A DNA stretch of 64,000 bases from Acidobacteriota bacterium (GTDB taxonomy: Bacteria; Acidobacteriota; Thermoanaerobaculia; Multivoradales; J023): NCBI GenBank assembly GCA_038747035.1, contig JBCDKB010000001.1:2029-66028 (forward strand), read 5' to 3'. Shown piece after piece: positions 23,286 through 35,427 of the stretch (position 1 is the stretch's first letter; every line of letters starts with the position of its first letter). The translations under genes and the position numbers were made by a program. The notes beneath the pieces were generated by a model. The model saw only the letters and a program-made list of their open reading frames with translations. It ran no database searches and was not told the DNA's origin.

Positions 23286-24863
23286 ATGCGGAAAGAAAAC
23301 ACCATGAGCTCGACACTGCGATATCTCCGCCTCCGCGGCAGGCTCGGTGAAACCGGTCCTCCGTTCCTCGCGGAGCTCGCCCCCGGCGTGCATCGCCTCG
23401 GCAGCGTGGACGATAACGACATCGTGCTGCGCTTCCACGGCGTGTCCCGCCACCACCTGCTGCTGCGGGTCGGCGATGAAGTCTCCTTTGAAGACCTGGG
23501 CAGCAAGAACGGCACCCGCGTCAACGGCCGCTCCAGACTCCAGTCGACGCTCGAGGTCGGGGACGACCTCTTCATCGGCCCGGTCCGCCTGCGCCTCGAG
23601 GCCGTTGAAGCCGACGATGTGCGACTGGCGGTCACCGCCGCCGCGGACCGCGAGCTCTTCGATATCGCCGACCTCGAGCTCGACGGCCGCAGCTCCTACG
23701 ACGATCACGAGCTCGACCGGCTCGAGCGCGTGCTCGAGACCTGGGGCGTCGAGCCCCTCGACCCGTCCGAGGCCCTCGCCACCCTCGGCCATGTCGTCGG
23801 CGCCGGCGGCGCCAGCTGGGTGTCGTGGCGGGACCGTCAAAAAGCCCGCGTCGAAGCGAGTTGGGGCGTTGACTTCCACGGCTTGATCGACCTCGAGGAA
23901 CTCTTCAGACGCGCGGAGGCCCGCGCCGGCTCGCGGCAGGCCGTGGTCCTCAAGACCTCGGGGCCGCCGCGGCTCGGCGCCGCGGTTGTGCTCGCGCGGC
24001 CACACCCGATGGCGCTCCTGCTCTGGGACCTCGACGCCCACCCGACCTTCGTCCGCGTCGCCGCTCGCCTGCTCGACCGCGGTCTCCACGGGCTGCCCTT
24101 TACGGCGGACGAAACCCTCGAGACCCCGCCCGGCGTCGATTGGGTGTGGGGCTCGGGCCCGGCCGGACGACGTCTCCAGACCGACGCCGCCCGCGCCCTC
24201 GGACATCGAAAGCCGCTTTTCATCCACGGCGGACCGGGCACCGGCAAGAAACACTTGGCGCGCTGCCTCCACGCCGTCGCCAGGCGACCCGGACCGATGG
24301 TCATCGCCGGTTGCTCGGAGCTCAGCGACGCCGCCCTCGCCCAGGGCTTTCGGGTGGCCGTCGAGGAGCAGGGGACGCTCTTACTCGAAGGGATCGGCGA
24401 CCTGAGCCCCGATCTCTTCGAAGCCGTGCTCCAGCTCGCCGGCGCCACGACGACCCGCGCCGGGCTCATCGTGACCGCCCCGACGGCGGAGCCGGAGCTG
24501 CCCCAAGCGATCATCGACGCACTCTGCCAACACCCCCTCGAGCTGCTACCCCTGGCCCAGCGACGGGACGAAATTCCTGGGCTGGTCTCCCACGTGCTCG
24601 GCCGCTCCCAGGACGAGCGCCCCCCGGGGCTGACCGTCGAAACCCTGCGCCAGCTCATGCGGCGACCGTGGCCCGGCGGGGTCACCGAGCTGCGGGCGAC
24701 GGTCGAGGCCCTGGTCGACGCCGCGCCTGAAGGCCGCGCCGTCGAGAGTTCCATGCTTTCCCAGGCCCTCGAAGCTGCGGGCCTCGGCGTCATGGTCGCG
24801 GGGGCCTCCGGCCCGGAAACCGACGCGTGGCGTGATCCATCCTCCGCCGACTCGGAGCCGTAG
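23286..24863 (+). CDS. FHA-domain protein with a degenerate sigma-54-activator-like AAA+ domain (no GAFTGA, no C-terminal HTH)
   Basis: N-terminal FHA (GSVDDNDIVL ... SRHHLLLRV ... SKNGTRVNG). Central Walker A GGPGTGKKHLARCLH. No recognisable GAFTGA loop or Fis-type HTH. Confidence 0.65.
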   Translation: MRKENTMSSTLRYLRLRGRLGETGPPFLAELAPGVHRLGSVDDNDIVLRFHGVSRHHLLLRVGDEVSFEDLGSKNGTRVNGRSRLQSTLEVGDDLFIGPVRLRLEAVEADDVRLAVTAAADRELFDIADLELDGRSSYDDHELDRLERVLETWGVEPLDPSEALATLGHVVGAGGASWVSWRDRQKARVEASWGVDFHGLIDLEELFRRAEARAGSRQAVVLKTSGPPRLGAAVVLARPHPMALLLWDLDAHPTFVRVAARLLDRGLHGLPFTADETLETPPGVDWVWGSGPAGRRLQTDAARALGHRKPLFIHGGPGTGKKHLARCLHAVARRPGPMVIAGCSELSDAALAQGFRVAVEEQGTLLLEGIGDLSPDLFEAVLQLAGATTTRAGLIVTAPTAEPELPQAIIDALCQHPLELLPLAQRRDEIPGLVSHVLGRSQDERPPGLTVETLRQLMRRPWPGGVTELRATVEALVDAAPEGRAVESSMLSQALEAAGLGVMVAGASGPETDAWRDPSSADSEP

Positions 24864-24905
24864 CCTGGGCGAACCCCGGATGAACACTTTAAGGATTCCG
24901 AAAAT

Positions 24906-25694
24906 ATGCTGAAAATCGAAGCCGCCGCCACGGCGCTCCTCCTCCTGTTGGCCGCCGGTGCGGCCGCCGACGAGCCGTCCGCCCGCTCCTTCGCCGAGAA
25001 GACTGAGGCCGCCCACGGCGGCGACGTTTGGAATGGCAAGCAGGCCCTCGAGGCCTACATCACCGTCAGCTTCGGCGGCGAGCGCCTGTTCACCGGCAAA
25101 ATGCTCACCGACACGCCGGTCGGCAAGACGCGATTCGAGCTCACCGACGGCACGGTCTTGGTTTTCGACGGCGAGACGGCCTGGAAGTCCCCCGCGGACT
25201 CCGAGTTCCAGGGCACGCGGTTCCACGTCCTCACCTGGCCCTATTTCCTCGCCGCCGCGCTGAAGCTCGACGACCCGGGCACCCACCTCGAGGACCTCGG
25301 TACGCAGCCCTACCGCGGCGGGCGTAGCCTCCCCGCGGCGCGTCTGACCTTCGGTGACGGCGTCGGCGACAGCCCCGACGACTGGTATGTGATCTACAGC
25401 CATCCGAAGACCCACCAGCTCCAGGCGATGGCCTATATCGTCACCTTCGGCAAGGACGCGGAGGCCGCGGAGGCCGCGGAGCCCAGCGCCATCGTCTATG
25501 ACAACTACGTCGACGTCGAGGGCGTGAAGATCGCCCGCAACTGGTCGTTCTTCAAGTGGAATCCGGAAGACGGCGTGATGGGTGACCAGATCGGTGAAGT
25601 CCAGATCACCCAGCCCGCTTTCGTCACGCCGGCGGCCGACGCGTTCGAAGCCCCCGAAGACGCCGAAGAGGCCCCGGCGCCGCCGGCGCGCTGA
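24906..25694 (+). CDS. Secreted hypothetical protein
   Basis: Signal peptide MLKIEAAATALLLLLAAGAAA; no recognisable catalytic motif; acidic A/E/P-rich tail. Confidence 0.45.
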   Translation: MLKIEAAATALLLLLAAGAAADEPSARSFAEKTEAAHGGDVWNGKQALEAYITVSFGGERLFTGKMLTDTPVGKTRFELTDGTVLVFDGETAWKSPADSEFQGTRFHVLTWPYFLAAALKLDDPGTHLEDLGTQPYRGGRSLPAARLTFGDGVGDSPDDWYVIYSHPKTHQLQAMAYIVTFGKDAEAAEAAEPSAIVYDNYVDVEGVKIARNWSFFKWNPEDGVMGDQIGEVQITQPAFVTPAADAFEAPEDAEEAPAPPAR

Positions 25695-25730
25695 CGCCGG
25701 CGGTCGCTCCACCGAGGGCGTCGAGCCCCG

Positions 25731-25748
25731 TTCGGATTGATCTCCGAA
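25731..25748. promoter_or_regulatory. Inverted repeat TTCGGA-N6-TCCGAA in the 250-bp leader of the AsnB-like/radical-SAM/halogenase-like module
   Basis: Perfect 6-bp arms read directly; a candidate dimeric regulator operator. Confidence 0.25.
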
Positions 25749-25947
25749 TCAAACCGCCTGGTTTCTGCGAAACCCCTACGGAACCCGGCGGCGGGGCCAG
25801 GCTACGGGCTCTACCGCCGGAGCCGGCGCCGCTATACTCGGCGCCGGCATCGAGACGCGGGCCAAGCACCCGATCCGCCGTTTAGCCCCGGCCCACAGCC
25901 GCACTCCAGAAGCCCACAAACGAGTCGCACCCAAGAGGGATCCCCCC

Positions 25948-27300
25948 ATGTCGTCGTCGCCCGAAGCCCGTCCCCATCAGCATGCTTACGTCGCGAAAGT
26001 CGTCGACCTGATCTCGCCGGACTCCCAGCATCTCGTCAACGCCGAGCTCGACGACGCCACCCGCGCGGTGCTCGCCAACGACGCCGCGGCTGTCCGGGAG
26101 CTTTCCGGCTCCTTCGCCGTCACCGCCCGCGACGGTGAGATCGTGCGCATGGCGCGCAGCCTCGACCGCCCCCTCCGCTTTTTCCTCGCCAAGGAGGTCG
26201 AAGGGCCGATGCTCGTCGTCGCCGAGCGCATCGACCAGATCGGTGAGTACCTGGACGGCCTCGGCTACGGCGATCAATTCCATCCGTCCTACACCCGCAT
26301 GGTGCCGGCGCACCACATCACCACGCTGCGCCTGGTGGGCTGCCCGGACCCGAACCCGGAGCACCGGCGCTTCTTCGATCCGCCCATGGGCACACTCCCC
26401 GCCGACCTCGACGTGATCGGCGAGCGCTACGTCGGCGCGCTGCTCGACGAAGTCGGCCAGTGGCTCAAAGCCCAGGATCCGCAGCAGCCGATCGGCGTGC
26501 TCTTCTCCGGCGGCATCGACTCCGGCGCCGTCCTCCTGGCCCTGCACCACCAGATTCTCGCCCAGGGCCAAAGCGCCGCGCGCCTTAAAGCCTTCACCCT
26601 GGCGGTCGAGAGCGGCGGCCAAGACCTCTCCCAGGCCCGAGAATTCCTGCGTCGCACCGACCTCGAGTTCCTCGGGGAAGCCATCGACGTTCCGGCCGAG
26701 GACCTCGACCCCCTCGGCGCCGTCGAAGTGATCGAGGACTACAAGCCCCTCGACGTGGAATGCGCCGCCGTCGCCCTCGCCGTGCTCGACGGCATCCGCT
26801 CGCGCTACCCCGACTGGGAGCTGGTCGTCGACGGCGACGGCGGTGATGAGAATCTGAAGGACTATCCGATCGAAGAGAACCCCGAGCTCACGATCCGCAG
26901 CGTCGTCAACAACTCGATGCTCTACCAAGAGGGCTGGGGCGTCGAGGCGGTGAAGCATTCCCAAACCTACAGCGGCGGCTACTCCCGCGGCTGCGTGCGC
27001 ACCTGGGCGCCGGTCCGGCGATTCGGCTTCACGGGATTTTCACCGTTCACGCGTCCGAACCTGCTCGCGGTCGCCGAGGCGATCCCCTTCAAGGCGCTCA
27101 CCGAAGGCAGTCACGACAAACTCTATGCCCTCAAGGGTGACATCGTGCGACGCGGTATGCAGCGCTTGCTCGGCGTCGAGATGCCGATTTTCGAGAAGCG
27201 CCGATTCCAGCACGGCGCCCTGCCGCCGACCCTCAACCACCCCTTCGACGTGCCCCGCCACCACTACCGGCGGCACTTCCTGAGTCTCTACGCCAGCTGA
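25948..27300 (+). CDS. Asparagine-synthetase-domain (AsnB-like, PP-loop ATP pyrophosphatase) protein lacking the N-terminal Cys glutaminase domain
   Basis: PP-loop VLFSGGIDSGAVLLAL; ~450 aa. No MCG N-terminus, so it is not a class-II glutamine amidotransferase. Confidence 0.65.
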   Translation: MSSSPEARPHQHAYVAKVVDLISPDSQHLVNAELDDATRAVLANDAAAVRELSGSFAVTARDGEIVRMARSLDRPLRFFLAKEVEGPMLVVAERIDQIGEYLDGLGYGDQFHPSYTRMVPAHHITTLRLVGCPDPNPEHRRFFDPPMGTLPADLDVIGERYVGALLDEVGQWLKAQDPQQPIGVLFSGGIDSGAVLLALHHQILAQGQSAARLKAFTLAVESGGQDLSQAREFLRRTDLEFLGEAIDVPAEDLDPLGAVEVIEDYKPLDVECAAVALAVLDGIRSRYPDWELVVDGDGGDENLKDYPIEENPELTIRSVVNNSMLYQEGWGVEAVKHSQTYSGGYSRGCVRTWAPVRRFGFTGFSPFTRPNLLAVAEAIPFKALTEGSHDKLYALKGDIVRRGMQRLLGVEMPIFEKRRFQHGALPPTLNHPFDVPRHHYRRHFLSLYAS

Positions 27301-27301
27301 C

Positions 27302-28270
27302 GTGCACGCCTTCGATCGGCGCCTGCGGGCGCAGCGGCCCGCGAAAATACCGCCCGAATCCGGGCGGCCGATCGCGGCGCAGGTCGAGCTGGAGCGGACG
27401 CCCGAAGGGGACCTCGAGCGCGCCCTGACGATTTTTCTCGCCGGACGGGAATGCCCGTTCACCTGCATCTTCTGCGACCTGTGGCGCCACACCACCGACG
27501 CGCCGACGCCCCCCGGCGCGATCCCGGAGCAGATCCGCATCGCCCTCGAAGAACACGCGCCGAAGGGCGCCCCGCCGGTTGAGAGCGTGAAGCTTTACAA
27601 CGCGTCGAATTTCTTCGACGCCGGCTCCGTGCCGCCGGCTGACGACGCGAAGATCCTCGACCTGGTCGGCGGGCTCCGCCGGGTGATCGTCGAGTGTCAC
27701 GCCAAACTCGTCGGCCGACGGGCCGCCAGATACGCCGAGCGCCTAGGCGGCGCCGGATCGCGCCTCGAAGTCGCCGTCGGCTTCGAGACCGTGCACCCCC
27801 AAGCCCTGGCCCAGCTCAACAAGCGGGTCACCGTCAACGACCTGCGCGCCGCCTCCCGCCGCCTGCGCGAAATGGACGCCGACCTGCGGGCCTTCGTCCT
27901 GATCGGCGTGCCGTTTATCGACCTCGGCGACGAGGAGGCGTGGGTCCTGCGCAGCGTCCAGGAAGCGCTCGACTGCGGCGCGCGGGTGGTGAGCTTGATC
28001 CCGATGCGCAGCGGCGAGTCGGAATTGGTCCGACTCGAACGCGAGGGCCTGTGGACACCCCCGGATCTCGACCGCGTCGAGGCGGCCTACACCCGCGCCC
28101 GGGAGCTCGCGCCGGACCGGGTCTTCCTCGACACCTGGGACCTCGACAAGCTCCGCCGCGCCCCCGGGGACGGACGTCGGGTCGAACGACTCCGAGGTCA
28201 ACAGCTCGGGGCCTTGAAGCAGGGCGGCGCGGCCGAAACAGCCGGCCGGGCCGGCGGGGCGGCGGCGTGA
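27302..28270 (+). CDS. Radical SAM enzyme
   Basis: CPFTCIFC (CxxxCxxC) near residue 60. GTG start 1 nt after the AsnB-like stop. ~320 aa. Confidence 0.6.
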   Translation: MHAFDRRLRAQRPAKIPPESGRPIAAQVELERTPEGDLERALTIFLAGRECPFTCIFCDLWRHTTDAPTPPGAIPEQIRIALEEHAPKGAPPVESVKLYNASNFFDAGSVPPADDAKILDLVGGLRRVIVECHAKLVGRRAARYAERLGGAGSRLEVAVGFETVHPQALAQLNKRVTVNDLRAASRRLREMDADLRAFVLIGVPFIDLGDEEAWVLRSVQEALDCGARVVSLIPMRSGESELVRLEREGLWTPPDLDRVEAAYTRARELAPDRVFLDTWDLDKLRRAPGDGRRVERLRGQQLGALKQGGAAETAGRAGGAAA

Positions 28271-29844
28271 ATCGCAGCACGCCCTATTTCGCCGTCATCA
28301 TCGGCTCCGGCTTCGCCGGATCGATTCTGGCGCGCGTCCTCCGACGACTGAAAAAGCGAGTCGTGGTGGTGGAGAAGAGCCGCCATCCGCGCTTCGCCCT
28401 CGGAGAATCGACGACGCCGATCGGCGGCCTGGCGCTCGAGCGCCTAGCCGCCCGCTATCGCCTGGACGACCTGCGCCACATGGCCGCCTACGGACGGTGG
28501 CTCGACGACCTGCCCCACCTGCGCCGGGGCTTGAAGCGCGGCTTTACGTTCTTCCATCACCAAAACGGCGAGCCGTATGCGAATGGTCCAGACAACGACC
28601 ATCGCCTGATGGTCGCCGCCAGCCCCGACGACCGCCTCGCCGATACCCACTGGCTGCGCTCCGACGTCGATCACCACCTCGCGAAACGGGCCGTCGCCGA
28701 GGGTGCCCGGCTGCTCCAAGAGACGACCGTCGAGGATGTGGAGGTGACCGAGGGCGGCGTCCGGGTGCGTATTCGCAGCGACCAAGGCGTCGACTTCCTC
28801 GAATCGCGCTACGTCATCGACGCCAGCGGCGGCGGCCACAGCGTGCTCGCCCGCGCTTTTGACCTGCCGTCGAAGACCGACCGGGTGCCGATCGATACGT
28901 CGCTGCTCTTCTGCCATATGGACGGCGTGCGCCATCTGCGGGACTCGGTCCCGGACCCGCACCCCGAGCTCGCGCCCTATCCGGAGGAGCGGGCGGCGGT
29001 CCACCACCTGCTCGATATCGGCTGGCTCTACGTGCTGCGCTTCGACCACGGCCCCGCCAGCGTCGGCCTGGTGCTGCGCAAGGATCGGCTGCCGATCTCC
29101 CAGGAACAGCTCGAGGTGCGCCCGGGAAGGGCGCTTCGACGCCTGCTGGACCGCTACCCGAGCCTCGGCGAGATCTTCCGAGACGCCCGGCCGGTGGACG
29201 GCGTGGTCGGCTATAAGGCCAGACTCCAGCACCGGTACAGCAGCGCCGCCGGCAAGCGGTTCTTCCTGCTGCCGTCGGCCTACGCCTTCTACGACCCGCT
29301 CTTCTCCACCGGCATCGCCTGGAACCTGCTCGCCGTCGAGCGCCTGGCGTCCCTCTTCGAGGGCCGCTACGGCGACGCCCGCGACTACGCCCTGCTGCTC
29401 AGCCAAGAGGCGGACCAGCTCGAGTCCCTCATCGAGAGCTGCTACCTGTCGATGGACAACTTCGATCGGTTCGTCGGCGTCACCGAGCTCTACTTCGCCG
29501 GCGTCAGCTTCGCAGAAGCACAGCAGCGGCTCATGCCCATGCGCGACGGACGCCCCGACGCCTGGGACGGCTTCCTCGGCGCCCGCGACCCGGTAATGTC
29601 GTCGCTCGTGGTGCAGACCCGCGACCGCCTGCGGCGCGACGCGAAGGGCCTGGCGAGCGCGTCGAATCTGCTGCCATGGCTCCGCCAGCGACTTTCCAGC
29701 CGTGACATCATCGGACTGGACCAGGCCCCGACGCCTCGGCTCTATCCGGTCGATCTCGACGTCCTGCAAGAGCGCAGCGACCGGCTGGGCCTCAGTCCCG
29801 AAGAGGTCTTCGCCGCCCTCCCCCGGCTGCGCGGCGAAGCGTAA
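28267..29844 (+). CDS. FAD-dependent oxidoreductase of the flavin-dependent (tryptophan) halogenase family
   Basis: AVIIGSGFAGSILA (GxGxxG) followed by FALGESTTPIGG (cf. PrnA IGVGEATIP). ~525 aa. No clear WxWxIP motif. GTGA overlap with the radical SAM stop. Confidence 0.65.
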   Translation: MNRSTPYFAVIIGSGFAGSILARVLRRLKKRVVVVEKSRHPRFALGESTTPIGGLALERLAARYRLDDLRHMAAYGRWLDDLPHLRRGLKRGFTFFHHQNGEPYANGPDNDHRLMVAASPDDRLADTHWLRSDVDHHLAKRAVAEGARLLQETTVEDVEVTEGGVRVRIRSDQGVDFLESRYVIDASGGGHSVLARAFDLPSKTDRVPIDTSLLFCHMDGVRHLRDSVPDPHPELAPYPEERAAVHHLLDIGWLYVLRFDHGPASVGLVLRKDRLPISQEQLEVRPGRALRRLLDRYPSLGEIFRDARPVDGVVGYKARLQHRYSSAAGKRFFLLPSAYAFYDPLFSTGIAWNLLAVERLASLFEGRYGDARDYALLLSQEADQLESLIESCYLSMDNFDRFVGVTELYFAGVSFAEAQQRLMPMRDGRPDAWDGFLGARDPVMSSLVVQTRDRLRRDAKGLASASNLLPWLRQRLSSRDIIGLDQAPTPRLYPVDLDVLQERSDRLGLSPEEVFAALPRLRGEA

Positions 29845-29887
29845 GCCCCGGGCTTCCGACGCCCCGAACGACCGCAAGGAGTCGCCC

Positions 29888-30211
29888 ATGTCCGACGAAC
29901 CCCACAACGACGACCTCGACGTGACGACGGTCTTTGCGACGTCCGAAGCCGACCTCATCCCGGTGATCAAGTCCGTGCTCCGGGGTGCGGATATCCCGTT
30001 CATCACCGACGGCGAGTCGATGATGAATCTCTTCCCGTCCGACCTGCTCGGCGCCGGGCTGCTCAGGCCGCGCGGCGAGATCCGCTTCAAGGTCGCCCGG
30101 GACCACGTCGAAGCCGCCCGCATCTTGCTTTCGGAATATCACGGCGCCGACGGGGGCGAAACGGCCGAGGGCGAGGCCGGCGAAGGCGAGGCGCCTGCGG
30201 GCGACGCCTGA
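29888..30211 (+). CDS. Small DUF2007-like protein with an acidic G/E/A tail
   Basis: 107 aa; AGGAG 6 nt upstream of the ATG; 44 bp after the halogenase-like gene. Confidence 0.4.
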   Translation: MSDEPHNDDLDVTTVFATSEADLIPVIKSVLRGADIPFITDGESMMNLFPSDLLGAGLLRPRGEIRFKVARDHVEAARILLSEYHGADGGETAEGEAGEGEAPAGDA

Positions 30212-30236
30212 GCCCGCCCCGCGGCCCTGATCGCCC

Positions 30237-31124
30237 ATGGACTCCCTCGAGCCCGTTCCGTTTCGCCTGCTCATCGACCGGGTCGTGCCGGTGGCCCGCC
30301 CCCACTTCGCCGGCGCCTTCTTGGCCACCGCCGCGCCGGTGGCGGCGGCGAGCGTCACCTTCGCCTTCCTCCAGCACCGGACCATGACCGGCTTCATCGA
30401 GGCGGACCCCTCCTTCGCCATGTTCGGCGGCTATGTGCTGTCGATTTTCGTGCTGCTGACCGTCTTTATCGCCTCCTACTCGGCGCTGGTGATCGCGGCC
30501 ATGGAAACTTTTGACGGCGGAGACATTCGCATCGGCCGCGCCTGGGCCTGGCTTTTCACCCCGCGCCTGCTGTGGACAGTCTTCCTGTGGACCGCGGTGA
30601 GCTTCATCAGCCTCATCCTCTGCGTGCTGCCGGCGGTGCTGATGATTCCGCTGCTCGCCTTCACGCTCAACGTCATGGTCGCTGAGCAAAGCTACGGCAT
30701 GGACGCGCTCAAGCGCAGCGCGTCCCTCGTGTGGTCAACGCCCACGGGTCGGCCCATCGACAGTGCATTCCTTCGGGTCTGCGCCGTTTTCCTCGTCGGC
30801 TACGGCATCCAGTCGGGCATCGGGCTGATCACCCAGGGCCCGTTCATGGCGCTCCAGCAGTATTACGTGCTGCGCGACGCGGCGGGCGGCGTCGGCGACC
30901 CGGCCCTCGCCCTCGGCCCCCTGTGGGTCCAGGTGACCGCCCAGTTCTTTAGCGCCATCACCACCGCCGTCGGCTGGCTCTACTGGGCCTTCGCCTTCTC
31001 GATGCTCTATTTCGAGCTTCGCCGGCGACGCGACGGCGACGACCTGCGGCGGGCGCTGGACGAGCTCACCGGCGTCACCCGGACGCAGACCGAAGCCGCA
31101 GGCGCCCTCGGAGCTACGCCCTGA
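30237..31124 (+). CDS. Polytopic membrane protein (6-7 TM), first gene of the MoxR-associated cluster
   Basis: Multiple hydrophobic helices; position and architecture resemble the membrane component that precedes DUF4129/DUF4350/MoxR/DUF58 in many genomes. Confidence 0.45.
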   Translation: MDSLEPVPFRLLIDRVVPVARPHFAGAFLATAAPVAAASVTFAFLQHRTMTGFIEADPSFAMFGGYVLSIFVLLTVFIASYSALVIAAMETFDGGDIRIGRAWAWLFTPRLLWTVFLWTAVSFISLILCVLPAVLMIPLLAFTLNVMVAEQSYGMDALKRSASLVWSTPTGRPIDSAFLRVCAVFLVGYGIQSGIGLITQGPFMALQQYYVLRDAAGGVGDPALALGPLWVQVTAQFFSAITTAVGWLYWAFAFSMLYFELRRRRDGDDLRRALDELTGVTRTQTEAAGALGATP

Positions 31125-31327
31125 GTCAGGCCCCGGCTCGGCCCCGGCCCATTGCCGTCGGCCTGCTGCTGGCGCTCGTCGCCCTGATTCTCCCCGCAGG
31201 GCTGACCGCGACGCCGTCCGATACGGGCGTCGGCACGGAGACCCGAGGGGCCCCGGAGGCCCTGGAAACCCCGCCCCCGCCGGGAGCCGATGCGCCCCCG
31301 GCGGACCGCGAGCTGCTCGCCGACGTC

Positions 31328-31882
31328 ATGCGCGAGGGGACCGTCGCCACCGATACGCCCCGCCCCCGGGTCATGCGCTACCTCGGCGACGTGGCGACGG
31401 CTTGGCTCGGCGGCTTCTTCGAGTGGCTCTTCGGCACGGGCGACTTTGAACAAACGGCGCTCGAGATCGTCCGCTGGATGATCATCGCCTTGAGCGCCTT
31501 GCTGCTCGGCCTGCTGCTCTTTCAGGCTTACCGTCGGTGGCGAGCGATGCACCTCAGCGCGCCGACGGCTCCGAAGGTAAAGGTGGAAACGCTGGCGCCG
31601 ACCCCGGCCGCCGCGACGGATTGGCGCCATGAAGTCGAAACGCGCCTCGAGGGCGGCGACCCGGATGCCGCCCTCGACGCCCTCTGGTGGTGGCTTGCGG
31701 AACGCCTTGACATCAAGGACGCCGACGCGTCGTGGACCACCCCCGAGCTCGCCCGGCGCGCCGGACGCCGCGACCTGCTGCCGCTCGTGCGACGCTGGGA
31801 TCGCCTCGTCTACGGCGGCGGCGCCGTGTCCGTCGAGCCCGTGCGCGCCCTCTGGCGAGGGTTTGAGGAGGCCTTGGCATGA
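31328..31882 (+). CDS. DUF4129-like membrane-anchored protein
   Basis: N-terminal TM IVRWMIIALSALLLGLLLF followed by W-rich ALDALWWWLAERL; overlaps the next gene (ATGA). Confidence 0.5.
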   Translation: MREGTVATDTPRPRVMRYLGDVATAWLGGFFEWLFGTGDFEQTALEIVRWMIIALSALLLGLLLFQAYRRWRAMHLSAPTAPKVKVETLAPTPAAATDWRHEVETRLEGGDPDAALDALWWWLAERLDIKDADASWTTPELARRAGRRDLLPLVRRWDRLVYGGGAVSVEPVRALWRGFEEALA

Positions 31883-33027
31883 GCTCAGACGACCTGCGGG
31901 CCGGCGTGCGCTCGCCGCCGCCGCCGAAGCTCTGGCCGTGGCTGCTCGGCGCGGTCGCCCTCGGCCTCTTCTTCGTGCTCTTGCCGTCGCCGGGGGCGGT
32001 ATCGAGCGCACTCTCGAAGGAATCCGGCGGCTGGTGGGCCCTGCGCGCTTATCTCGAAGCCCAAGGCGTCGAGGTTGAGCTTCTAGATGCCCCCCTCGGC
32101 ACGGTGCTCGACGAGCGCGAAGCCCAGCCTTCCGACCGGGACGAGCCGGCGGTTCTGGTCCTAGCGCTGCCCTGGCAGCGGCGCGCCGACCCCGAGTTCG
32201 AGCGCCAGCTGCGGCGACACCTGCGCGGCGGCGGTCGGGTCCTGCTCGCCTACGACGGCGCCGAGGAGTCGGCGACGCGCTCTTTCCTCTTCGACATGCT
32301 GGGGCTCAGCCCCGAATTCGAGCTGCGGAGCGAGCCGCCCCTAACGCCCAGGGCGTGGTGGCGCTACCAGCAGGAGACCTTCACCCTCAAGCCCGCCGAC
32401 GGCGCGCCCCAGCGCCGACTCGAAATCCCCGCCTTCTACACCGCGCCGACGGTGCCCCTCGACGCCGAGGTGCTCTACACCACCGCCCGTTCCTCCGAGC
32501 CCGTCATCTTCGAGGTCGAGCGCCACGGCGGTCTCATCTGGGCACTGCCGGCGGCCTTCTTCGCCAACGCCCACCTCGCCGAGTATGACCATATCGAGCT
32601 GGTCGCCCTCGCCCGCGAGCGGCTGGGCGATCGGTGGCTCTTCGACGAATACCACCACGGCCTGCTGCGGCCTGAGCTCGCCGAGGCCGGCCGGAATCGC
32701 TACGCCTGGGATCTCTTCATCGGCCACCTACTGCTGATCTACGCCCTGGCGCTGCTCGCCCTCGGACGCCGCTTCGGCCCGACCTGGCGGGAAGAGACGC
32801 TGCGCACCGGCTCGGCGAGCGATTTCCTGCGCAGCCTCGGGGTGCTCCACCACCAGCTCGGCCACCACCGCGACGCCGCCCGCCGACTGCTCGAGCGGAC
32901 CCGCCAGCTCGCCCCTGGTCTCGAGCTGCCGTCGGGGCCGGGGGAGGCCTTCGACCCCGAGGCCGTAGACGACGGCGCCTCCCTCACCGAATACGCCGCC
33001 CGACTTGCCGAACGCCGCGGCGCCTGA
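31879..33027 (+). CDS. DUF4350-like protein
   Basis: N-terminal TM, then a ~350-aa domain in the canonical position upstream of MoxR. Confidence 0.5.
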
Positions 33028-33080
33028 CGACAGCTCTAAAGACACCGCACTTCGCGATAGCCCGCCGTGAAAGGACCCCG

Positions 33081-34091
<1,011 letters not shown>

Positions 34092-34137
34092 GCCGTCGGC
34101 TGCGGACAGTTCGACTGAAGTTGGACTGGAGGCCACC

Positions 34138-35427
34138 GTGCCGGCCCTGAGGGTCTTCTACCTGCTCGGCGTCACGACGCTGCTCGGCGTCGTCGGCGTG
34201 CTGGTGCCGTGGGCCGGCTGGACCGCCCTCGGCCTCGACGCGCTGCTGCTCGCGGCGGTGTGGATCGACTGGCGTCGCGCCCGCGCCGTCCGCCTCGACG
34301 CCGAGCGCCACTGGCCGCGTCTCTTGACCCAAGGGACCCCCGCGACGCTGCGCCTCGAGATCGAGGGCCCCGAGGTCGCGACGACGGTCCGACTGCGCGA
34401 AACGCTCCACCCCGGACTGACTTCGACGCCGGCGCGCGCCGAGCTCCGTCTTCTGAGGCGCGCCGCCTGGGAGATCCCGCTCGAGCCGGCGAGGCGCGGC
34501 GAGCACAGCTCCGGGCCGCTTATGGCCCGCGTGCTCGGCCCGTGGGGCCTGGCGTGGCACCAGCGCGAGCTGGTCGGCGCCGAGCCCCGGAAGGTCTACC
34601 CGCAGGTCCGCTGGGACGGCAAGGTCGGCCAGCTGCTGCTGCTCGCCCACCGCCGGGCCCTCGGCCAGCACCCCCAGCGTCACCGCGGCCTCGGCACCGA
34701 GCCCTACGCCCTGCGCGAGTACCTGGCCGGCGATCCGCCGAACAAAATCCACTGGAAGGCGTCGGCGCGGCACGGCCGGCTGGTCAGCCGCGAAGACACC
34801 TGGGAGCGCGGAGCGCGCCTGGTGGTGCTGCTCGATTGCGGCCGCGGTATGTCGGGCGAGGACGGCGAGCGCGCCAAGCTCGACCACGCGCTCGCCGCCG
34901 CCTTGGCCTTGGCCCGCGTCGCCGCGGCCCGGGGCGACCGGGTGACGATCACCGCGTTCTCGGACCGTATCGAGAGGACAGTGCGCCTCACCGGCGGCGT
35001 CCGTCGCCTCCAGACCGCCTACGCCCAGCTCTACGACCTCCAGGCCCGCCTCGTCGAACCCGCCTTCGACCTGGCGGCCGATACCGCGGTCGCCCTCGAG
35101 TCTCGACGCTCGACCGTGGTGCTCTTCACCTCCGTGGTCGACCTCGCCGCCGCCGACTGGCTCAGGCGCGCCGTGCTCAAGCTGGAGCGCCGTCACCGAC
35201 CCGTGCTGCTCAACCTGCAGGACCCCGAGCTTCTAGCCCTGGCCGACTCGGCGCCGGCGACGCCCCGGGATGCCTTTGCCCAGGCCGCCGCCCTCGACAT
35301 CGGACTCGCCAATCGCGACCTCGCCACCCGACTCCGCCGCACCGGCGTGCGCGTTGTCAACGCGCCGGCCGACCGTTTGGCGCTTGAAGCTTTGGAGGCC
35401 TACCTGTCGATTTTCGGCGCCGGGTAG
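34138..35427 (+). CDS. DUF58 (VWA-like) protein, MoxR partner
   Basis: Two N-terminal TMs; the conserved [19 protein letters not shown] motif of DUF58; [13 protein letters not shown]-like beta strand. GTG start chosen at 34138. Confidence 0.7.

Follow-up and report, generated by a model that had tools for sequence, protein, structure and literature searches.

A phylum-spanning three-gene unit encoding a predicted glutaminase-less amide synthetase, a RaSEA-related radical SAM enzyme and a halogenase-like flavoprotein

Do four closely spaced genes of an Acidobacteriota bacterium (GTDB lineage Thermoanaerobaculia; Multivoradales) constitute a metabolic module, and what might such a module make? 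The genes, designated here g1 to g4, lie on the forward strand at positions 25948-30211 of a 64,000-nt stretch of contig JBCDKB010000001.1 (the window; G+C content ~69%). A first-pass annotation described them as a four-gene module encoding an AsnB-like synthetase, a radical S-adenosylmethionine (SAM) enzyme of ~320 aa, an enzyme of the flavin-dependent halogenase family and a small DUF2007-like protein, a combination that fitted no named pathway. Here, we describe a comparative analysis of this locus and its relatives in other genomes. The conserved unit comprises three genes, g1, g2 and g3, which very probably act together as one functional unit. Each of the three encoded proteins scores below the cut-off of every curated functional family, g1 and g2 have no close solved structure, and no curated family model or solved structure covers the unit. 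The literature that we searched contains no description of the combination, and the statement that no named pathway fits the trio stands.

The three coding sequences abut or overlap. The open reading frame (ORF) map and the junction sequences place g1 at 25948-27300 (450 aa, TGA stop), g2 at 27302-28270 (322 aa, GTG start) and g3 at 28267-29844 (525 aa, GTG start), all on the forward strand. A single base separates the TGA of g1 from the GTG of g2, and g2 and g3 share a four-nucleotide overlap, GTGA, at 28267-28270. The window g1 is 100% identical to an NCBI protein from an Acidobacteriota metagenome-assembled genome. With each GTDB species represented by a single genome, relatives of g1 were found in at least 566 species, and the number of protein clusters (90% identity) that match it exceeds 8000. 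The best 80 of the at least 566 species belong to the Acidobacteriota (Vicinamibacterales, Thermoanaerobaculia), Gemmatimonadota, Pirellulaceae and Abditibacterium, together with one Lysobacterales genome, one 'Deltaproteobacteria' genome and Candidatus Multivorans; the best 120 of the at least 8000 matches are 64-83% identical to the window protein and include Gemmatirosa kalamazoonensis. Synteny was scored by tBLASTn with the window proteins at loci possessing at least 3 kb downstream of g1. Among 61 such loci from GTDB species genomes, g2 is present at 60, g3 at 60 and both at 59, and 59 of the 61 retain the order g1-g2-g3; g2 directly follows g1 in 56 loci, and g3 directly follows g2 in 57. 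A more divergent metagenome set, in which g1 is 45-61% identical and G+C content ranges from 33 to 70%, yielded 46 loci, with g2 at 38, g3 at 25 and both at 25. Carriers of the trio fall into at least five named phylum-level groups and include Acidobacteriota, Gemmatimonadota, Planctomycetota and Abditibacterium. When the ORFs of these loci were clustered, g1, g2 and g3, along with their antisense shadows, were the only families common across phyla and all other neighbours were lineage-specific; no conserved precursor ORF, carrier protein, protease or transporter was present in the clustered neighbourhoods. Gemmatirosa (G. kalamazoonensis KBS708, CP007128.1, ~4,646,014-4,650,160) and a TARA Oceans scaffold, looked up independently, carry the same trio. 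The first-pass annotation had allowed that its module would dissolve if the genes had housekeeping homologues and their order were conserved in no other genome; the retention of that order in so many loci across phyla shows the opposite. We regard g1 as the core of the unit, g2 as its usual partner, and g3 as a frequent yet dispensable tailoring step.

The fourth gene does not share this distribution. g4 (29888-30211, forward strand; 107 aa, ATG start) encodes a protein with an acidic tail and a pI of 4.3, and is separated from g3 by a spacer of 43 nt, not 44 nt as earlier given. The sequence AAGGAG lies 7 nt 5' of the g4 ATG. A sensitive phmmer search of 84 related loci placed DUF2007 homologues near the trio in only four, the window, L002, L004 and L017, which argues against g4 as a precursor or as a partner of general occurrence. 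Thus, g4 is a lineage-specific neighbour outside the conserved module, the proposed four-gene module contracts to three genes, and the suggestion that the DUF2007-like protein is a candidate partner loses its basis. All four family assignments hold, two of them at scores under the Pfam cut-offs: DUF2007 (PF09413) for g4 at 20.2 bits against a cut-off of 25.7, and Radical_SAM for g2 at 27.2 bits, slightly below 29.5.

The product of g1 belongs to the AsnB-fold/PP-loop ATP pyrophosphatase superfamily, as indicated by an invariant SGGxDS motif and a two-domain fold. Pfam Asn_synthase matches it at 38 bits, above the cut-off, over the central 135 residues only (179-313), and the asparagine-synthetase equivalog TIGR01536 scores 32 bits against a cut-off of 267.1. 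The PP-loop SGGIDS, the ATP pyrophosphatase signature, occupies residues 187-192 (26506-26523, forward strand), and S187, G188, G189, D191 and S192 are invariant among 49 orthologues. No N-terminal Cys nucleophile is found in g1, which begins MSSSPEARP, and none is conserved in the 49 orthologues; the N-terminal 15-20 residues vary across the family. Pfam, motif and orthologue alignment therefore agree with the original reading of g1 as an AsnB-like protein with an intact PP-loop and no glutaminase Cys. The AlphaFold2 (AF2) model of g1 has a predicted local distance difference test (pLDDT) score of 83, and its best Foldseek match in the PDB is the beta-lactam synthetase 1mc1 (E 9e-13, TM ~0.55-0.60), followed by human ASNS, the carbapenam synthetase CarA, E. 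coli AsnB and TsnB9, with both domains covered. The matches to beta-lactam synthetase, ASNS, CarA and AsnB span 430-465 columns at E values of 1e-12 to 1e-10. A profile of 14 orthologues searched against the PDB found only human asparagine synthetase, at E 0.004. The intact PP-loop and fold, combined with the missing glutaminase nucleophile, suggest that the amine used by g1 does not come from glutamine hydrolysis, and g1 should, on this prediction, be an adenylating amide synthetase unable to take ammonia from glutamine.

Within the trio, conservation is highest for g1, with 57-70% identity between phyla compared with 30-50% for g2 and g3. A near-invariant segment, DGDGGDENLKDYPIEEN...MLYQEGWGV...KHSxTYSGGxSRG, extends over residues 295-348 (26830-26991, forward strand; from invariant columns). 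Within this most invariant stretch, residues 301-342 (26848-26973) have pLDDT values below 50 and form the sole internal region of the model that is so low. A loop that is invariant yet modelled as disordered points to induced fit when a partner or substrate binds, and the segment is probably a substrate- or partner-gated active-site loop that would become ordered on binding. The family is isolated, as a g1 profile search of 1.84 billion cluster representatives returned merely 887 at E<=1e-3. Its nearest described counterparts, beta-lactam synthetase, carbapenam synthetase and TsnB9, have a PP-loop, adenylation chemistry and a non-catalytic N-terminal domain, as does g1. They differ from it in that identity is 12-18%, no curated model of these families matches g1, and the invariant loop at 295-348 is specific to g1; CEAS, CarB and CarC-like partner genes are not conserved near the trio. 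Lactam closure by beta-lactam synthetase involves Tyr348, Glu382 and Lys443. The likeness to beta-lactam synthetase noted in the first-pass annotation survives as the best fold match of g1, one that barely exceeds asparagine synthetase (E 6e-11) and corresponds to 16-18% identity. The lasso-peptide cyclases likewise possess an AsnB fold without glutaminase activity and form amide bonds, an activity that for g1 is predicted. That analogy, also raised earlier, is not borne out, since no precursor peptide ORF, B-protein (protease/RiPP recognition element; RiPP, ribosomally synthesised and post-translationally modified peptide) or ABC exporter is conserved beside the trio, and no cyclase model matches g1.

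The second gene encodes a radical SAM protein, as judged by an invariant cluster-binding motif and a barrel in the AF2 model. The CX3CX2C motif (C51, C55, C58) lies at 27452-27475 on the forward strand and is invariant in 47 orthologues. The model of g2 (pLDDT 92.8) matched generic radical SAM barrels (LipA, HydE, Elp3, PFL-AE), and no sequence relatives were found in the PDB, so identification of g2 by structure was abandoned. Family models are more informative. g2 matches the RaSEA family TIGR01210 at E 2e-14 and 53.5 bits, below the equivalog cut-off of 212.15, and TIGR01210 is the top curated family for all 47 orthologues (best E 2e-23), always as a distant relative; TIGR01212 (MnmL/YtqA) is also matched by 23 of the 47, with a best E of 1e-7. 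g2 does not qualify as a RaSEA, since its score is under that cut-off and its neighbour has the AsnB fold and is not ArcS. Judged from these profile relationships, g2 is not a generic radical SAM enzyme, and RaSEA and MnmL/YhcC are its sole specific curated relatives. The length and motif given in the first-pass annotation are therefore correct, and its generic description is superseded by a RaSEA-related one. Most g2 orthologues possess a C-terminal CxxC-x20-24-CxxC zinc-ribbon-like tail; in a comparison of loci L001-L083 the tail is missing from the window protein (C-terminus encoded at 28100-28270), L017, L011, L066, L079 and L037, and its loss does not correlate with the presence of a DUF2007 gene.

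The chemistry of these relatives bears directly on the trio. RaSEA converts preQ0-Lys on tRNA to archaeosine (G+) in a complex with the lysine-attaching enzyme ArcS (PMC11298593), and MnmL and its E. coli homologue YhcC convert 5-carboxymethylaminomethyl-2-thiouridine (cmnm5s2U) to 5-aminomethyl-2-thiouridine (nm5s2U) by removal of the carboxymethyl group (bioRxiv 10.64898/2026.05.18.725915; 10.1101/2023.12.21.572861). Both reactions amount to radical N-dealkylation that leaves an -NH2 group, and, as these are the closest curated families of g2, the same chemistry may be suggested for it. The ArcS-RaSEA pair of Euryarchaeota is the closest functional analogy of the trio. g2 belongs to the bacterial family closest to RaSEA, and RaSEA is paired with an amino-acid-attaching enzyme as g2 is translationally coupled to a glutaminase-less amide former. 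The two systems differ in the low g2 score, in the C-terminal third of g2, which falls outside the match to the RaSEA model, and in the partner, which is of the AsnB fold rather than the ArcTGT/ArcS type. Furthermore, the hosts of the trio are bacterial and a halogenase-like gene is attached. MnmL/YtqA and YhcC, the second-closest curated family, resemble the system predicted for g2 in that an amino-acid-derived carbon unit is removed from nitrogen; they differ in their weak similarity to g2, and in having a methylase partner, MnmM, and a tRNA wobble uridine target, neither of which is seen here.

The third gene encodes a protein related to flavin-dependent halogenases. g3 matches Pfam Trp_halogenase at 48.8 bits as well as families binding flavin adenine dinucleotide (FAD), and phmmer searches of the PDB returned PltM (6bza/6bzt, E 3e-44, 154 bits) and the tetracycline 7-halogenase CtcP (7v0b, E 4e-41), in alignments spanning ~360-400 residues. 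Matches to QhpG (57 bits), LodB, GoxB and geranylgeranyl reductases are weak and far below those to PltM and CtcP. Two hallmarks of the halogenases are present. The FAD-binding GxGxxG motif occurs as GSGFAG at residues 13-18 (28303-28320, forward strand) and is conserved in orthologues. Lys90, within GLKRGF (codon at 28534-28536, forward strand), is placed by HMMER on the lysine of PltM GIKLGF, chain residue 107; subtraction of an assumed 20-residue tag converts this to K87, the catalytic lysine of PltM, which corresponds in position to K79 of PrnA. The GLKRGF block is at least 95% conserved among 63 orthologues. A third hallmark is lacking, as WLYVLR (29023-29040, forward strand) stands in place of WxWxIP, which reads WLWVIP in PltM and WMWIIP in CtcP, and the family consensus at this site is GWMYxLxF. 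The GESTTP block is retained, so that all of the motif observations made earlier for g3, including the missing WxWxIP, were recovered. PltM and CtcP thus resemble g3 in GxGxxG, a GE(S/A)xTP block, the position of the catalytic lysine and an FxDPxFSxG block; they are unlike it in their tryptophan motif, in the pyoluteorin or tetracycline cluster context that g3 lacks, and in that no flavin reductase is linked to g3. g3 is best described as halogenase-like, and halogenation is its likeliest activity as predicted from sequence. The choice between halogenase, hydroxylase and reductase that had been left open is narrowed in favour of the first, given the closeness to PltM and CtcP and the conserved lysine.

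A peptide precursor was considered as a candidate substrate. No credible small ORF is present in the 253-bp leader upstream of g1 (25695-25947, forward strand), and no small-ORF family within 900 nt of the trio is common to different lineages among 84 loci; the small-ORF clusters that did appear are out-of-frame shadows of lineage-specific neighbours. A precursor peptide was rejected on these two results, which uphold the earlier remark that no precursor ORF is obvious. The leader itself is not a conserved element. It contains the inverted repeat previously noted, TTCGGA-N6-TCCGAA (25731-25748, forward strand), and a second, AT-richer one, GGTTTC-N3-GAAACC (25760-25774, forward strand), which starts 12 nt past the end of the first; two such repeats were found compared with 0.08 expected in shuffles, and neither is kept in relatives. 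Overall, six 6-bp inverted repeats are seen in the GC-rich leader compared with 1.5 expected, and 2.8% of shuffles reach six. The leader does not align with those of L087 and L088, whose g1 proteins are 81-83% identical to that of the window. An Rfam search at E<=1 over 24800-31500 gave one match, spurious and viral. The leader contains no sigma-70-like or consensus promoter, and terminator-like sites occur at background level. A riboswitch or other regulatory leader was discarded on these grounds, and the regulatory role implied for the inverted repeat is unsupported, as the repeat is near chance in shuffles and lies in a leader that does not align with its relatives.

What, then, might the three enzymes do? 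No other gene travels with the trio, which suggests that its substrate is made elsewhere in the cell. We tentatively favour, with a confidence a little short of an even chance, a self-contained three-enzyme module that is conserved across phyla and acts on a substrate encoded elsewhere. A small-molecule or cofactor tailoring cassette, the class proposed in the first-pass annotation, is still the most likely one for the trio, albeit unproven. For a small molecule as the substrate itself we judge the chances evenly balanced. The g1, g2 and g3 proteins are acidic (median pI 5.8-6.2), no precursor ORF accompanies them, and free phenolic compounds are the substrates of PltM and CtcP; together these observations lend weak support to a small-molecule substrate. 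In the mechanism that we envisage, g1 would adenylate a carboxylate and couple it to the amine of a donor, for example an amino acid, that would serve as 'masked ammonia'; g2 would strip the carbon skeleton of the donor by radical C-N cleavage (N-dealkylation), yielding a primary amide; and g3 would chlorinate or brominate an electron-rich aromatic ring of the same molecule, either after or before g1 and g2 have acted. Such a scheme would yield a halogenated carboxamide, either a metabolite or a cofactor. To our knowledge, the RaSEA/MnmL lineage is the only one among radical SAM enzymes that strips an amino-acid skeleton from nitrogen. A two-step scheme is the most economical because g1 has no internal ammonia source and its constant partner g2 is related to RaSEA and MnmL. 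This specific ligate-then-dealkylate mechanism, drawn by analogy, is nonetheless a tentative proposal and more doubtful than probable. The fuller statement, that g1 and g2 perform a glutamine-independent 'masked-ammonia' amidation as an AsnB-fold counterpart of ArcS-RaSEA and with g3 make an unknown halogenated carboxamide, is decidedly doubtful, and it is just as doubtful that such a compound is shared by Acidobacteriota, Gemmatimonadota, Planctomycetota and further phyla that are abundant in soil and sea.

Several observations weigh against this scheme. The mechanism is extrapolated from distant relatives, g2 scoring 53 bits against a 212-bit cut-off, and both characterised relatives, RaSEA and MnmL/YhcC, act on tRNA and not on small molecules. 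The conservation of g1 across phyla is above that typical of secondary-metabolite enzymes and hints at a macromolecular partner or substrate. g3 lacks WxWxIP, the motif that defines flavin-dependent halogenases, and a flavin reductase linked to the trio was not found. Additionally, some lineages have g1 alone, or g1 and g2 without g3. At L130, L140, L141, L091, L138 and L156, g1 (55-58% identical) occurs with no g2 or g3 within 6-8 kb, and its neighbours are housekeeping genes, among them those for succinate dehydrogenase and adenylosuccinate lyase and one resembling YhdP. A rare and distant subfamily of 15 proteins, ~30% identical and including one from Candidatus Kerfeldbacteria (candidate phyla radiation, CPR), has neither a radical SAM nor a halogenase neighbour. 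These lone g1 genes indicate that g1 presumably works without g2, which weakens an obligatory two-step amidation. The CPR-type genes (L084:2561-4908, L085:1208-3625, L086:7083-9470) are always divergent from a gene for a TrmB-family regulator; standing alone beside that regulator, the subfamily was uninformative as a clue to the substrate.

Other readings of the trio account for part of this evidence. Chance adjacency of three unrelated housekeeping genes might be entertained for the lineages in which g1 stands alone among genes such as succinate dehydrogenase and adenylosuccinate lyase, yet it is refuted by synteny and is scarcely credible: order and adjacency persist across at least five phylum-level groups while the other neighbours change, the start and stop codons overlap or abut, and no member reaches any housekeeping family cut-off. 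A four-gene cassette, with the DUF2007-like protein as partner or precursor and a g1 that performs a cyclisation of the lasso-cyclase or beta-lactam-synthetase type, could draw on the position of g4, 43 nt past g3 on the same strand with a good Shine-Dalgarno sequence, on the homologues near the trio in L002, L004 and L017, and on beta-lactam synthetase as the top structural match of g1. That match is the narrow, low-identity one described above, the Pfam score of g4 is below its cut-off, and DUF2007 is missing from 80 of 84 related loci; this co-occurrence largely refutes a cassette of four genes, which we consider highly improbable. The tRNA substrates of both g2 relatives raise instead the hypermodification of tRNA or rRNA, in which g1 would amidate or ligate a carboxyl nucleoside, g2 would trim the adduct and g3 would oxidise or halogenate the base. 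PP-loop ATPases are common in tRNA modification, the zinc-ribbon-like tail of most g2 orthologues could bind nucleic acid, and the very high conservation of g1 with no linked substrate gene fits a universal macromolecular substrate. The trio proteins are acidic, however, Pfam finds no RNA-binding domain in them, the g2 of the window and several others are without the tail, the trio is patchy in distribution and absent from most bacteria, and we know of no AsnB-fold or PltM-type enzyme that acts on RNA; an RNA target is thus unlikely.

Peptide or protein maturation is a further reading, with g2 and g3 as maturases like QhpD/QhpG or LodB acting on a distant precursor or on the g1 loop itself and producing a cross-link, a modified Trp or Tyr, or a protein-derived cofactor. 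This would give meaning to the weak matches of g3 to QhpG, LodB and GoxB, to a near-invariant 40-residue loop in g1 that is rich in W, Y and K and modelled as disordered, and to conservation of g1 far above that of g2 and g3; AsnB-fold enzymes, moreover, include the lasso-peptide cyclases. Three points oppose it: QhpG and LodB are much more distant from g3 than are the small-molecule halogenases (PltM, 154 bits); no small ORF, protease, exporter or RiPP recognition element is conserved beside the trio; and the intact catalytic PP-loop marks g1 as an enzyme and not a mere scaffold. We therefore regard maturation as quite unlikely, and installation by g2 and g3 of a protein-derived cofactor in the invariant, disordered g1 loop as very unlikely. 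A role in processing or breaking down an imported compound, linked in function to CRTAC1-like (FG-GAP + UnbV_ASPIC) beta-propellers that are secreted and to TonB/SusD uptake, is suggested by FG-GAP/UnbV_ASPIC genes in the flanks of 53 of ~165 related loci, in varied arrangements. Such genes lie directly upstream of g1 on the same strand at L109 (36-7815), one stands in place of g3 at L089 (10329-12014), and in Gemmatimonadota a convergent downstream block combines them with an RnfD-like membrane protein; Gemmatimonadaceae loci have upstream genes for a TonB-dependent receptor and SusD. The 64-kb window contains no FG-GAP/UnbV_ASPIC gene, however, nor do most Acidobacteriota loci; the genomes in question probably encode many of these repeat proteins, so lineage synteny may explain part of the signal; and ATP-dependent amide formation with halogenation is biosynthetic and not catabolic. 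The uptake reading is accordingly as improbable as maturation, and we retain the substrate-elsewhere tailoring module as the preferred account of the trio.

Variations on the arrangement were seen in particular lineages. FG-GAP_3 and UnbV_ASPIC proteins are also encoded beside the trio at L115:5974-7806, L152:11833-17287 and L001:14751-17332, the UnbV_ASPIC genes are often accompanied by genes for an RnfD-like (PF03116) membrane protein and an unannotated ~311-aa protein, and in one low-GC lineage that has no g3 at the locus, the same-strand order is ASPIC-ASPIC-g1-g2. In Abditibacterium (L083:3213-3992), g1 and g2 are separated by a class I SAM methyltransferase gene, and in a member of the Multivoradales (L010:9329-10192), where g3 is missing from the flank, by a gene with a TonB C-terminal domain. 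In the metagenome representatives P0257, P0265, P0307, P0308 and P0251, the C-terminus of g1 is joined to the N-terminus of g2 in one ORF; these fusions were not used as evidence, because most are fragments and a one-base error at the 1-nt junction would mimic a fusion. A sponge 'Halo_AMP' preprint, considered as a match to the trio, was set aside because its architecture is different.

The genes surrounding the trio in the window are on the same strand. On the 5' side, 23286-24863 encodes a protein with an FHA domain and a weak AAA+ core and lid of the sigma-54-activator type, and 24906-25694, between that gene and the leader, encodes a 262-aa protein that matches nothing in Pfam or NCBIfam; in other genomes, the trio is linked to neither of these genes. 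On the 3' side, a gene for a UPF0259/YciC-like membrane protein, the fifth same-strand gene, begins 25 nt past g4 and is followed by a DUF4129-DUF4350-MoxR(AAA_3)-DUF58/VWA operon (30237-35427 in all). These downstream genes may be co-transcribed with the trio in the window; they were rejected as part of the module, being unlinked to the trio at other loci. A role in anti-phage defence was also dropped, since PADLOC gave no match.

Each of the trio enzymes belongs to a known superfamily, and what stands out is their combination, wide distribution and strong conservation. The trio is not peculiar to one metagenome-assembled genome, and its carriers include several of the most abundant and least-cultured phyla of soil and sea. 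If the ligate-then-dealkylate mechanism is true, the module would represent a new route to primary amides and would extend RaSEA/MnmL-type radical N-dealkylation beyond tRNA, and should g3 prove an active halogenase, soils would have in this module a widespread source of organohalogens with a broad phylogenetic range. Even without the mechanism, the trio is a compact and tractable three-gene target that is present in the cultured bacterium Gemmatirosa kalamazoonensis. Its interest lies not in any single gene but in an unannotated, phylum-spanning trio in which a RaSEA-like radical SAM enzyme accompanies an AsnB-fold enzyme that lacks a glutaminase.

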